From Escherichia coli (GTDB taxonomy: Bacteria; Pseudomonadota; Gammaproteobacteria; Enterobacterales; Enterobacteriaceae), in the NCBI RefSeq assembly GCF_024502345.1, contig NZ_JALDNN010000001.1: a DNA stretch of 64,000 nucleotides. The stretch is one strand, 5' to 3'. Below, piece by piece: positions 40,268 through 43,843 of this stretch. The stretch's first letter is position 1. Each line of letters starts with the position of its first letter. The notes beneath the pieces were generated by a model. The model had not been told where the DNA came from and did not search any database. It saw nothing but the letters and a program-made list of their open reading frames with translations. Position numbers and translations under genes: made by a program.

Positions 40268-41044
40268 TTAAAGATTAACGACTTCACCATCTTCAGGGAT
40301 ACTAACCTGGTCAGTAATCTTATTAAGATCTACATACTCATGGATTTCTTTTCGGGTTTGTCCAAAATGATTTACAGATTCCATATGTGTGGAAATAATA
40401 TGTGCTTTTGGAAGTATGTTATGTGTCCTTAGCACATCTTCTTTACCCATGATAATAGGCCCCAGATTTTCCACCTGCGCATATCCCGTATTCAGGATAA
40501 CGATATCAGGCTGATATTTATGCATAACCTGCTCTACATCATTAATCCAGATAGTATCACCAACTATATAGATAGTCTTTTCGCCATCAGACTGGAGAAT
40601 AACCCCCATAGCTTCACCTAATAGCTCTGCCGCAGCGGGGTTGCGGAATGCCTCATCACTACCATGTTGACAGTGAGTTGGAATTAAGCGAATTCCGGCG
40701 TATTCAATTTCATTATCAAGAACTTGTAGGTTAATAAATCCATCGCGGGCCAGTTCGTTTTTGTCTTCAGTATTCTGTACAAAAATAAGCATATCGCGAG
40801 GGATCAGCGCCCGGGCAGCAGCATCCCAGTGGTCATCATGCGTATGAGTAACAATAATAGCATCTACATCAATAACCTCTGATACCGGTAGAGGTAAGTC
40901 AACAAGAGGGTTCCGTAAATGGCGGTTCATCGTCAATGGAAAACCAGGGAATGAACCTTTTGCTGATAACATCGGGTCAATCAGGATTTTTTTTCCTGCA
41001 TAATGAATAATTGCAGTGGCGTTACGGATCTGATGAAATTTCAT
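40268..41044 (-). CDS. MBL-fold metallo-hydrolase
   Basis: 258 aa with the metal-binding motif THTHDDHWD. Confidence 0.7.
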   Translation of the reverse strand: MKFHQIRNATAIIHYAGKKILIDPMLSAKGSFPGFPLTMNRHLRNPLVDLPLPVSEVIDVDAIIVTHTHDDHWDAAARALIPRDMLIFVQNTEDKNELARDGFINLQVLDNEIEYAGIRLIPTHCQHGSDEAFRNPAAAELLGEAMGVILQSDGEKTIYIVGDTIWINDVEQVMHKYQPDIVILNTGYAQVENLGPIIMGKEDVLRTHNILPKAHIISTHMESVNHFGQTRKEIHEYVDLNKITDQVSIPEDGEVVNL

Positions 41045-41114
41045 AATAGAACTCCAGTTCTGTATTAACAGAACACAGTAAGAGGATTAATTTACTTTCC
41101 AGCTGGCAGAAGTT

Positions 41115-43418
41115 TTATATCGCTTCTGAACCCCTGAATGTTTTTCGCCATACGGACGGCGATACGCCAAATTTTGCGATAAACTTTTCCCGTAAAGATG
41201 TTGCGGAACTAAAACCAACCAGCTCAGATACCTTCTGTACAGAGTGGGCTGTAGATTCCAGTAATACCTGCGCTTCTCTCAGACGCTCCGTTGTTAACCA
41301 GTCAACCAGTGTCATGCCCGTCGACTGTCGGAAGCGGCGTGTAAAGGTTCGTCGGCTCATGCTAACGACTTCACAAAGTTCATCCAGCGTCCAGCGTCTG
41401 GCCAGGTCCTGGCGCAGCGTTTCAACCAGCAGAATTATCTGGCGATCCTTTGTTGCAGATGGAAAAGGCATCTGAATATACTGAGCCTGTCCCCCGTCCC
41501 GATGAGGCGGGATCACCATTCGCCTTGCTATCTGATTGGCAATATTGCTCCCGTACAACTCCCTGACCAGATACAGACAGCAGTCCATACCCGCACCTGT
41601 ACCGGCAGAAGTAATAATATTATCGTCAGCTACATAGAGCGCATTCATATCCAGGTGGGTATTCGGAAACCGTGACTGAAAATCACTCTCATACAACCAG
41701 TGTGTCGACGCGTTTCTTGCATCCAGTAGTCCTGAATAGGCCAGAGCATAGGCACCAAGGCACAAACCCACAATGGTGGCATTATGCTGTGCAGCTTCCC
41801 GGAGTGCTTCCGTTAACTGTGGCTCCGGTACAATGTCAGGCGATGGCCAGAAAGGAACTATAACCATGTCAGCAGTACGTAACACCGATAAGTCATTGAT
41901 GTAGCCCCCTGAAACACCGGACAGTAGCTGTATCTCCAGATAAGAGATAGGCTTGAATATATGTCTAACACTAACGCCAATTTTGAGATGACCGGGATCC
42001 TGTTAGGGCAAGAAGTCCGTAAACGTAAAACTCCTCAGGAGAAGATCGCCATTATCCAGCAGACGATGGAGCCGGGTATGAATGTCTCCCATGTCGCCCG
42101 CCTGCATGGTATCCAGCCCAGCCTGCTGTTTAAGTGGAAGAAGCAATATCAGGAAGGCAGCCTCACCGCCGTTGCGGCTGGAGAGGAAGTCGTTCCTGCT
42201 TCTGAGCTTACTGCTGCTCTGAAGCAGGTCCGGGAGCTTCAGCGCCTTCTGGGCAAGAAAACGATGGAAGTTGAGATCCTGAAAGAAGCCGTGGAGTACG
42301 GTCAGTCGCGAAAATGGATAGCGCACGCGCCCTTGTTGCCAAAGGACGGGGAATAGCCATGGTCAGCCGGACCATGGGCGTGTCGCGTGCGCAACTGTCA
42401 CTGCGGATTAACCGTTCTGCCGACTGGCAGGACAGGCGCTGTAACCGGCGTAATGAAGAAGCAGACGCAGAAATACTGTCGGCTATCCTCAACATTATCA
42501 GCGATATGCCGAGTTATGGTTATCGACGCGTGTGGGGCATCCTGCGCAAGCAACGTCGCACAGAGGGACAGCCACCTGTGAATGCCAAACGGCTTTACAG
42601 GATAATGAGCGAGCATAACCTGTTGTTGTTGCATCACAAACCAGAGCGACCGAAGCGTGAACATAAGGGCAAGATAGCGGTGGCAGAAAGCGATATGCGC
42701 TGGTGTTCAGATGGCTTCGAGTTCGGCTGCGACAACGGCGAAAAACTGCGGGTAACGTTCGCGCTGGACTGCTGCGACCGTGAGGCCATAGACTGGGCAG
42801 CAAGCACGGGAGGCTATGACAGTTCGACCGTGCAGGATGTGATGCTGAGGTCGGTGGAAAAGCGCTTCGGCGACAGGTTGCCCGACACAGCGGTGCAGTG
42901 GCTGACGGATAACGGTTCAGCGTATACCGCGTATGAAACGCGGAGGTTCGCGAGAGAGCTGAATCTGGAGCCCTGCACAACAGCGGTGAGCAGCCCGCAG
43001 AGTAATGGCATGGCCGAACGGTTCGTGAAAACGATGAAAGAAGACTATATCGCGTTCATGCCAAAACCGGATGTGAGAACAGCACTGCGAAACCTTGCAG
43101 TAGCGTTCACGCATTACAATGAAAACCACCCGCACAGCGCGCTGGGATATCACTCCCCGAGGGAATACCGGCGGCAGCGGACATCGTTAACTTAAGATAC
43201 AAAAGCTGTTCGGAGATGGAGGGTCAAGATCAACACCGATAAGTCATATTCCGGTGTAATATGCATACCATGTGAGGTTTTTATAGTCTTTCCCTGCACG
43301 GAGCATAAAACAACGTTAAATAATGAATGGTCCGGGATAATATCTGCAAAAATTGCCAGGGGTACGGAGAGATGAAATGCACTGATATCATCGGTTATCA
43401 AAATGGCTATCTTTTTCA
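41115..43418 (-). pseudogene. GlxA-type regulator (DJ-1/PfpI domain plus AraC HTH), interrupted by an IS2-group element
   Basis: N-terminal part 43234..43418 (MKKIAILITDD...PEYDLSVL), C-terminal part 41115..41896 (...DLSVLRTADMVIVPFW... AraC-type HTH); frame continuous once the IS is removed. Confidence 0.75.
41897..43232 (+). mobile_element. IS3-family, IS2-group insertion sequence
   Basis: orfA 41961..42356 and orfB 42314..43195 resemble recalled IS2 InsC/InsD at roughly 60 percent; ends TGATG...GATCA; flanked by a 15-bp direct repeat acaccgataagtcat. Confidence 0.8.
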
Positions 43419-43438
43419 TTTCATACTCTCCTGTAAGA

Positions 43439-43843
43439 TTAACTAATCTGACGTACGATATCGTTATAATCAAAGTGCGCACGTTTTTCCTTAATTTTAC
43501 CGCCTTCAATAGTCAGCAGCATCATCAGAGAAATACGTACTTTTTTCCCGGTTGGTTTATATCCGTGCATTTCATTATTGTGGATACCTTCAAAAACAAC
43601 ATAAGCTACGACTTTATCCGCTTCACTGATAAGAACTTCAGGCTTCATGCTGAAGCCCCGGAATCCATCAAGTGTGGCAGTTTCAGATGCGATAAAACCG
43701 TCAACTCCATGAATGGGGTTATCTATCTGTGAATAGAAAACAAAGTCACTGGAGCAAAGTGATTTAAGGGTTAAAAAATCATAACCTTCAAGAGCCTGAT
43801 AAAAATCATGTACAAGTTTTTCATTTGAGTTTTTCATGGTCAT
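43439..43843 (-). CDS. NTF2-like / SnoaL-like small protein
   Basis: 134-aa ORF, first gene of the operon with the GlxA-type regulator and the MBL hydrolase; family assignment from overall sequence character only. Confidence 0.5.
   Translation of the reverse strand: MTMKNSNEKLVHDFYQALEGYDFLTLKSLCSSDFVFYSQIDNPIHGVDGFIASETATLDGFRGFSMKPEVLISEADKVVAYVVFEGIHNNEMHGYKPTGKKVRISLMMLLTIEGGKIKEKRAHFDYNDIVRQIS

Follow-up and report, generated by a model that had tools for sequence, protein, structure and literature searches.

A probable sax-type isothiocyanate detoxification operon, with an IS-disrupted regulator gene, carried by a Tn3-family transposon in Escherichia coli

Isothiocyanates (ITCs), among them sulforaphane and allyl-ITC, which are studied for their antimicrobial and health effects, are the 'mustard oil' defence of crucifers, and the hydrolase SaxA is a proven virulence factor of plant pathogens. 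In a 64,000-nucleotide stretch of Escherichia coli DNA (NCBI RefSeq assembly GCF_024502345.1, contig NZ_JALDNN010000001.1; hereafter the window), we analyzed a region encoding a SnoaL-like protein, a GlxA-type regulator and a metallo-beta-lactamase (MBL)-fold hydrolase, which is probably a three-gene sax-type ITC detoxification operon carried as cargo by a Tn3-family transposon, its regulator gene being disrupted by an insertion sequence (IS). No enzyme other than SaxA has been characterised as degrading ITCs (PMC13039779). SaxA converts R-NCS to R-NH2 and carbonyl sulfide, and its family, widespread across Enterobacterales, comprises five clusters that all retain ITC hydrolase (ITCase) activity, despite identities down to 44.9%; many saxA genes are carried by mobile elements (PMC7036374). 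The transcriptional regulator of the saxCAB locus is encoded by saxC (PMC12903958, PMC6922522), and how bacteria sense sulforaphane and control the sax genes has been reported as unclear (PMC9452769).

The closest described hydrolases are the SaxA ITCases from P. syringae DC3000 and from the Pectobacterium/Delia radicum gut isolate (PDB 6BRM), with which the MBL protein of the window shares its subfamily over the full length and the same metal ligands; like many saxA genes, its gene is carried on mobile DNA. It differs from them in that its gene stands last of three, behind the SnoaL-like and regulator genes, rather than first, and in that the carrier is an E. coli/Salmonella Tn3-family transposon. 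The saxCAB locus of P. syringae pv. tomato DC3000 (Fan et al., 2011) likewise clusters a hydrolase gene with its own regulator, but the window is without a saxB-like gene, includes a SnoaL-like gene that is outside the described sax set and carries the regulator inside the operon instead of divergently. The features of the operon are as follows.

40268..41044, minus strand: MBL-fold hydrolase gene, 258 aa, last in the operon (Lactamase_B_2, E 6e-13; match to PDB 6BRM)
41057..41074, minus strand: perfect palindrome GTTCTGT-TAAT-ACAGAAC with 7-bp arms, in the 70-nt gap ahead of the hydrolase gene (read from the sequence)
41115..41896, minus strand: 3' fragment of the regulator gene, residues ~59-317, comprising the AraC helix-turn-helix (HTH) and the greater part of the DJ-1/PfpI-like domain, in which Cys103 lies (from alignment to an intact copy)
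41897..43232, plus strand, opposite to the operon: IS2-group (IS3-family) element, 1336 bp (from alignment to the uninterrupted locus L001, plasmid NZ_KY706108)
43233..43419, minus strand: 5' fragment of the GlxA-type/SaxC-like regulator gene, ~63 codons (aligns to L001 10323..10136)
43439..43843, minus strand: SnoaL-like gene, 134 aa, first in the operon (Pfam SnoaL PF07366, E 1e-24)
43899..43935, minus strand: 37-bp conserved box ATGGCCCAATCATGTTGATTAATGTCTTTTTGGTCAC, 56-92 nt upstream of the SnoaL ATG (matrix match)

A preliminary description of this DNA, made from its letters and open reading frames, had assigned the three proteins to the SnoaL/NTF2-like, DJ-1/PfpI-AraC and MBL types and had noted that the genes are co-oriented with short gaps. 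Pfam matches agree with all three assignments, and all three genes lie on the minus strand, with 19 nt, carrying an AGGAG ribosome-binding site, between the SnoaL stop and the regulator ATG (43419), and 70 nt between the regulator stop and the MBL ATG.

The hydrolase and its regulator

Using phmmer, we found that the MBL protein matches PDB entry 6BRM, 'isothiocyanate hydrolase SaxA', over residues 1-256 of 258 (E 7e-79). A profile built from 15 MBL homologues recovered 6BRM over its full length at E 2e-118 and the uncharacterised close relative 3RPC at 8e-97, with the next MBL family following at 4e-6. The AlphaFold model of the protein (predicted local distance difference test, pLDDT, 93.3) superposes on 6BRM with a template-modelling (TM) score of 0.97 and a root-mean-square deviation of 1.2 A, compared to TM scores of 0.74-0.76 for the next, unrelated MBL folds, and the metal ligands of the HxHxDH motif and the following His, Asp and His (H67, H69, D71, H72, H127, D163 and H220) are invariant in the 15 homologues, the window protein included. 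Identity to 6BRM is roughly 47-54%, depending on the alignment (47% by Foldseek; the upper figure was counted from the HMMER alignment), and identity to 80 genomic homologues is 44-57%, which places the protein inside the published range of the SaxA family. Judged by its sequence, the MBL protein belongs over its whole length to the SaxA ITC hydrolase subfamily, and its characterised relatives predict that it is an ITC hydrolase. As a cytoplasmic SaxA-family enzyme, it would hydrolyse R-N=C=S by means of a metal-activated water to yield R-NH2 and carbonyl sulfide.

The assignment to the cytoplasm follows a division within the family. The window protein has no signal peptide and starts directly at the catalytic domain, as does the enterobacterial type, whereas the SaxA homologues that have a divergent regulator (Pseudomonas, Marinobacter and Halomonas-type) carry an N-terminal signal-peptide-like extension (loci L016, L023, L026-L028, L030, L031, L033, L037, L038, L042, L043, L047, L054, L056, L057, L063-L065, L067-L069, L071, L074, L077, L080-L086 and L088). 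The extended, divergent-type homologues are predicted to be periplasmic and the enterobacterial type, with the window protein, to be cytoplasmic, and the difference agrees with a remark in the literature (PMC7303113).

The intact copy of the regulator is 317 aa long, with DJ-1_PfpI (PF01965) at 2-169 and HTH_18 (PF12833) at 231-309, HTH_AraC being matched as well. With the GlxA/FtrA/GbdR-type GATase1-like AraC regulators it shares a DJ-1/PfpI-like N-terminal domain with a Cys and a double AraC HTH, but the best NCBIfam model, FtrA, gave 310 bits, below its cut-off of 425, and GbdR gave 127 against a cut-off of 480. Cys103, the nucleophile-elbow Cys of the DJ-1 domain, does not vary among 66 orthologues and is a plausible candidate for a covalent sensor of the electrophilic ITC, a role that we put forward only as a hypothesis, because such a cysteine is typical of the wider regulator family too.

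To relate this regulator to the sax genes, we relied on a neighbourhood survey of 80 loci with a SaxA homologue from Gamma-, Beta- and Alphaproteobacteria, Nitrospira and a Chitinophaga. A GlxA-type gene, 40-51% identical to the window regulator, directly adjoins the saxA homologue at 58 of the 80 loci; it is co-directional and downstream of the hydrolase gene at 31 of these (Enterobacterales, Nitrosomonas) and divergent and upstream at 27 (Pseudomonas, Stutzerimonas, Halomonas, Marinobacter, Pasteurellaceae and others). Of the remaining loci, 3 have the regulator nearby, 11 lack it and 8 are truncated by a contig end. The same regulator type stands beside the hydrolase gene at the Pseudomonas loci L042, L063 and L085, and in P. 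viridiflava the locus tag of saxC is two tag increments from that of saxA. From this gene context we infer that the GlxA-type protein of the window is a SaxC-type regulator. The combination of genes had at first not been recognised as a characterised operon; this view is superseded for the MBL gene, which falls in the SaxA subfamily, and for the regulator gene, whose pairing with the hydrolase gene matches the published saxC/saxA locus, so that two of the three genes match a known operon, and it stands for the SnoaL-like gene and for the particular architecture.

One locus of the survey, L059 (WIAG01000136.1, 'MAG: Nitrospira sp. CR1.2', MAG denoting a metagenome-assembled genome), carries at ~2930-3050, just upstream of its SaxA homologue, tet-operator-like repeats TCCCTATCAGTGATAGAGA followed by a synthetic AATAATTTTGTTTAACTTTAAGAAGGAGATATACAAATG leader. 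Such an arrangement is that of an expression-vector construct, and this 4-kb 'MAG' contig is therefore probably laboratory plasmid contamination.

The trio as a whole also recurs, and the doubt raised in the preliminary description, that the genes might not co-occur elsewhere, is thereby removed. In the order seen in the window and at 70-95% protein identity, it is present in three chromosomal contexts without transposition genes (L008, L097 and L099), and in rearranged form, at 42-49% identity, in metagenomic Gammaproteobacteria (L090-L094), which argues that the combination is not due to chance. The closest chromosomal copy, L097, lies beside flagellar genes (SnoaL 92%, regulator 95% and MBL 88% identity), and that of L099 beside inositol-catabolism genes. 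At L008, positions 2205-4366 beside the trio hold a second GlxA-type regulator gene with divergent OsmC and isochorismatase-family genes.

SaxC is said to be a DJ-1/PfpI-AraC protein and SaxB an isochorismatase-family protein. Directly after the hydrolase gene, seven marine/Pseudomonas-type loci (L042, L064, L067, L069, L080, L081 and L086) have an isochorismatase-family gene whose product is 58-64% identical to that of L008. These genes are possibly the equivalent of saxB, which would fit a regulator/saxA/saxB layout.

The 37-bp box and the insertion in the regulator gene

The conserved box ahead of the SnoaL-like gene has the ungapped consensus TTGGCCCRAT-N4-ATCG-N5-TGTC-N5-GGCCAC and lies ~60-100 nt before the hydrolase start in other genomes. 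The 18 sites from which its matrix was derived precede saxA-like genes of other genomes, and the matrix was applied with a threshold of at least 20 bits within 350 nt upstream; the statistics that follow are those of our own matrix and a simple shuffle control. With the 18 training loci left out, the box is found upstream of the hydrolase gene at 31 of 42 loci with an adjacent regulator versus 0 of 11 without one, and it is essentially single in each 10-kb locus. Across the 64-kb window the matrix gave one match, of 33.6 bits, with a runner-up at 10.2 and maxima of 5.4-15.6 in 10 shuffles. The box likewise precedes snoaL in L097, L099, L008 and L001.

No second box was found ahead of the MBL gene in the window, where there is only the small palindrome. 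The presence of a single box, upstream of the SnoaL-like gene, argues that the box, snoaL, the regulator gene and saxA form one unit. By its position and its association with the regulator, the box is a candidate operator of the SaxC-type regulator and would mark the promoter of a snoaL-regulator-saxA transcript. In the intact form of the operon, then, one regulated promoter region with the 37-bp box would drive snoaL, the regulator gene and the hydrolase gene as one transcript, and the SaxC-type regulator would bind the box and autoregulate the operon, with Cys103 sensing the electrophile. The palindrome (41057..41074) lies 8 nt ahead of the MBL ribosome-binding site and may form an RNA hairpin between the two cistrons or serve as another DNA site; its counterpart reads GTCCTG...CAGGAC in L097, with both arms changed, and CCTG...CAGG in L099. 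A terminator scan of positions 39700-44800 gave 1 site compared to 4.7 in shuffles, and Rfam gave no family at the gathering threshold in the whole window.

The regulator gene is intact in L001, L003, L004 and L096 and broken in the window. Its disruption, already noted from the reading frames, was confirmed by comparison with L001, against which the window has a 1336-bp insertion with a target duplication. The element entered after regulator codon ~63, so that the reading frame of the 5' fragment (MKKIAILITDD...) continues into the IS; it is flanked by a 15-bp target duplication ACACCGATAAGTCAT and encodes IS2-like OrfA/OrfB (TnpA/TnpB-like) proteins on the plus strand. Identical full-length copies of the 1336-bp element are present elsewhere in E. 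coli in 22 records. IS3-family elements normally make duplications of 3-5 bp, long ones being unusual; at identical copies of this IS the duplications are 16 bp (L100), 15 bp (L101) and 5 bp (L102). The junction between the IS and the regulator gene is absent from 5,426 complete E. coli genomes and from 72,556 plasmids, which points to a recent, strain-specific inactivation. Different insertion sequences have entered other copies of the operon: IS903B interrupts the SnoaL-like gene in L002, and ISKpn26 is the element in NZ_CP148376.

The element splits the first ~63 residues of the regulator from the remainder and places 1.3 kb, in opposite orientation, between the box and the hydrolase gene. 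Its insertion destroys the regulator and would leave the SnoaL-like gene on a promoter that is without its regulator. With respect to the hydrolase gene, the preliminary description had allowed either silence or constitutive expression, and the anatomy favors silence, since the operator lies before the IS. Because the only operator of the family type is upstream of the SnoaL-like gene and the IS lies in between, the hydrolase gene is most likely silent or expressed at a basal level; read from this anatomy, induction has most likely been lost, with little or no expression. Some expression may still come from a weak promoter within the IS or the 70-nt gap, in which case the hydrolase gene would not be silent.

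The Tn3-family transposon and its distribution

The view that the three genes are transposon cargo was borne out: tnpR/tnpA stand on one side of them and a terminal inverted repeat on the other, all parts of a Tn3-family element that has the following features in the window.

38351-38381 (GGGGCCCGCTTGGAAAACGGAAAATATCCTA) and 39745-39751 (CGTTAAG): left 38-bp inverted repeat, split by an IS110-family element
38382-39744: IS110-family element in the left repeat (transposase E 1e-106)
39747..40088, minus strand: 3' remnant of a second, related Tn3-family tnpA, 113 codons (NCBIfam transpos_Tn3 positions 873-954, E 1e-31)
44036..44611, minus strand: tnpR, serine recombinase/resolvase
44771..47755, plus strand: tnpA, Tn3-family transposase, 994 aa (NCBIfam NF033527, 1210 bits against a cut-off of 500)
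47751..47788, minus strand: right 38-bp inverted repeat GGGGTCCGCTTGGAAAACGGAAATTATCCCACGCTAAG

With Tn3-family transposons that have Tn21-like repeats, the element shares tnpA, tnpR and 38-bp GGGG...ACGnTAAG repeats, and an IS110-family element has entered one of its repeats, as IS4321/IS5075 are known to do. It differs from the Tn21-like transposons in that its cargo is a putative plant-toxin detoxification operon, not mercury or antibiotic resistance, and in that this cargo is bounded by the remnant of a second tnpA. The NCBI Prokaryotic Genome Annotation Pipeline (PGAP) gave no match to a named element, only the generic 'Tn3 family transposase'. The tnpA remnant, annotated by PGAP as a partial Tn3 family transposase in L003/L004, extends as far as the left inverted repeat, and the stretch between the hydrolase gene and that repeat (39747-40267) also holds a short remnant of an integrase gene; both remnants are probably scars of cargo capture.

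The complete unit in L001 has matching repeats at its ends and is flanked by a 5-bp target duplication, ATATT, which indicates that cargo and transposition genes move together. The flanks of the window copy differ (AATTA at 38346-38350 versus AGGGA at 47789-47793), with no 5-bp target duplication, and its surroundings were therefore probably rearranged after insertion. Two IS110-family elements stand in tandem at 37205-39751, the second being represented by a transposase ORF (open reading frame) at 37205-38269, and another CGTTAAG, the inner end of a further Tn3-type repeat, follows this second element at 38311-38317. Together, the extra CGTTAAG and the tandem elements suggest that remains of a second transposon are nested here; on the related chromosome L096, three IS110-family elements follow one another.

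Overall, the window is most similar to a chromosomal island of E. coli (NZ_LR536431, NZ_CP062851) with the same transposon and an intact regulator gene. At identities of at least 98.4%, the trio is present in 34 plasmids, 26 of them conjugative, from Escherichia (22), Salmonella (9), Enterobacter, Klebsiella, Shigella and Raoultella, and in 58 of the 5,426 complete E. coli genomes. It comes from humans, pigs, chickens, birds, water and soil, as well as from food, livestock and wastewater. The trio is thus rare, yet clearly circulating.

The SnoaL-like partner and the function of the operon

The AlphaFold model of the SnoaL-like protein (pLDDT 92.4) is an NTF2-like cone, and fold searches matched it to SnoaL-like cyclase structures with TM scores of up to 0.88-0.90 (3I0Y 0.88, SnoaL2 0.85) at 15-22% identity. 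The matches from this search were generic NTF2, SnoaL-like and epoxide-hydrolase-like folds and gave no functional lead. The protein thus shares the alpha+beta cone of SnoaL, SnoaL2, AclR and the limonene-epoxide-hydrolase-type NTF2 enzymes (TM 0.8-0.9), but it differs from them in its low identity and in having no polyketide context, its subfamily being tied to SaxA genes instead. Within that subfamily the motif EKRAHFD is invariant, including the H123-x-D125 pair, which we take to stand at the position of the catalytic residues of SnoaL and which suggests that the protein is an enzyme.

The tie to SaxA is visible from both directions. Starting from the MBL homologues, a SnoaL-like gene (37-50% identity) is adjacent at 4 of the 80 loci, in Photorhabdus (L020), Burkholderia (L045), a gammaproteobacterial MAG (L054) and Variovorax (L066). 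Starting from the SnoaL homologues, which are rare, a word-indexed search of 5.8 billion proteins having given 50 clusters, a SaxA-family MBL gene (44-45% identical) lies immediately upstream in 3 of 4 lineages in which the SnoaL homologue is 47-49% identical, and two of these three have a GlxA-type regulator gene too, convergent downstream. The genes stay neighbours although their order varies, and this points to a functional link between the SnoaL-like protein and SaxA, suggesting that the former is an accessory enzyme of the hydrolase. In the fourth lineage (L095, 417-2201) the gene of the SnoaL homologue (47% identity) has no SaxA gene beside it and stands divergently to those for the alpha and beta subunits of nitrile hydratase; nitriles are the other main breakdown products of glucosinolates, and this neighbourhood is possibly a coincidence.

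A further-reaching reading, which we offer tentatively and consider doubtful as a whole, makes the SnoaL-like protein a second glucosinolate-product detoxification enzyme that works with SaxA, the box and the Cys103 regulator a covalent electrophile switch that would account for the control of the sax genes, and the Tn3-family transposon the vehicle that spreads this unit among human and livestock E. coli and Salmonella. In that case, the SnoaL-like protein might act on a thiocarbamate intermediate or on carbonyl sulfide, or on products other than ITCs, such as epithionitriles or oxazolidine-2-thiones. No accessible paper links a SnoaL-like protein with an ITC hydrolase, and we found no description of the SnoaL-like partner, the order with the regulator gene in the middle, the candidate operator or the carriage on this Tn3-family transposon, although the primary SaxA papers may note part of this.

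For the region itself, we consider a sax-type ITC detoxification operon the probable identity, and several points weigh against it. All of its functional claims rest on homology or gene context. ITC did not induce saxC in P. viridiflava, where induction of saxA was no more than weak at the time sampled, and deletion of saxC in Xanthomonas left sulforaphane tolerance unchanged. A scan of positions 39700-44800 for consensus sigma-70 promoters gave 5 sites compared to 7.6 in shuffles, none of them upstream of snoaL or the MBL gene; as nothing rose above chance, the promoter is deduced from the box alone, and the scan is uninformative here because a promoter of this type would be activator-dependent. 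Finally, SaxA may have roles beyond plant ITCs in Enterobacterales (PMC7036374).

This last point leads to the alternative that fares best, that the enteric substrate is some other electrophile or a thiocarbonyl and the operon a general electrophile-stress module, with hydrolysis of ITCs as a side activity. Enterobacterales that are not associated with plants widely carry SaxA homologues, the authors of the family study themselves suggesting additional roles (PMC7036374), the neighbours at related loci are stress and redox genes (OsmC, isochorismatase-family, flavin monooxygenase and quinone reductase genes), and the trio is hosted by human, animal and wastewater isolates. We nevertheless judge it unlikely, as ITCs are hydrolysed in all five SaxA clusters tested and ITCs from dietary crucifers do reach gut bacteria.

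Far less probable is an operon unrelated to sax, in which the resemblance of the MBL protein to SaxA would be at the level of the fold only and the pathway an unknown one. The names given by PGAP are indeed generic ('MBL fold metallo-hydrolase', 'ester cyclase' and 'GlxA family transcriptional regulator'), and none of the three proteins matched an NCBIfam equivalog above its cut-off. The likeness to SaxA, however, extends over the full length with about half of the residues identical and an E-value more than 100 orders of magnitude better than that of other MBL families, and the pairing with the regulator is conserved as in the sax locus.

That the genes are a mobile beta-lactamase or other resistance determinant, or a polyketide-tailoring cassette of SnoaL cyclase and hydrolase, as the Pfam names Lactamase_B_2 and SnoaL polyketide cyclase and a transposon in resistance-plasmid hosts might suggest, is hardly credible, given an MBL protein that lacks a signal peptide and has no clinical B1/B2/B3 beta-lactamase among its top fold matches, the absence of any resistance gene flagged at the locus by PLSDB/AMRFinder annotation, the low identity to SnoaL structures and the absence of polyketide synthase, tailoring or other biosynthetic genes from the ~100 related loci, where the neighbours are SaxA-family MBL genes and GlxA regulator genes.

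The window copy itself is ordinary biology, a recently IS-inactivated operon. A regulated saxA operon on a Tn3-family transposon, in conjugative plasmids and in chromosomes, suggests a trait that circulates in bacteria of the gut and the food chain, with relevance for ITC-based food preservation, for the amount of sulforaphane left by the gut microbiota and for the persistence of enteric pathogens on brassica produce. If the further-reaching reading of the SnoaL-like protein and the electrophile switch were true, carriage of the unit could lower the exposure of the host, and of the bacteria too, to sulforaphane and other dietary isothiocyanates.

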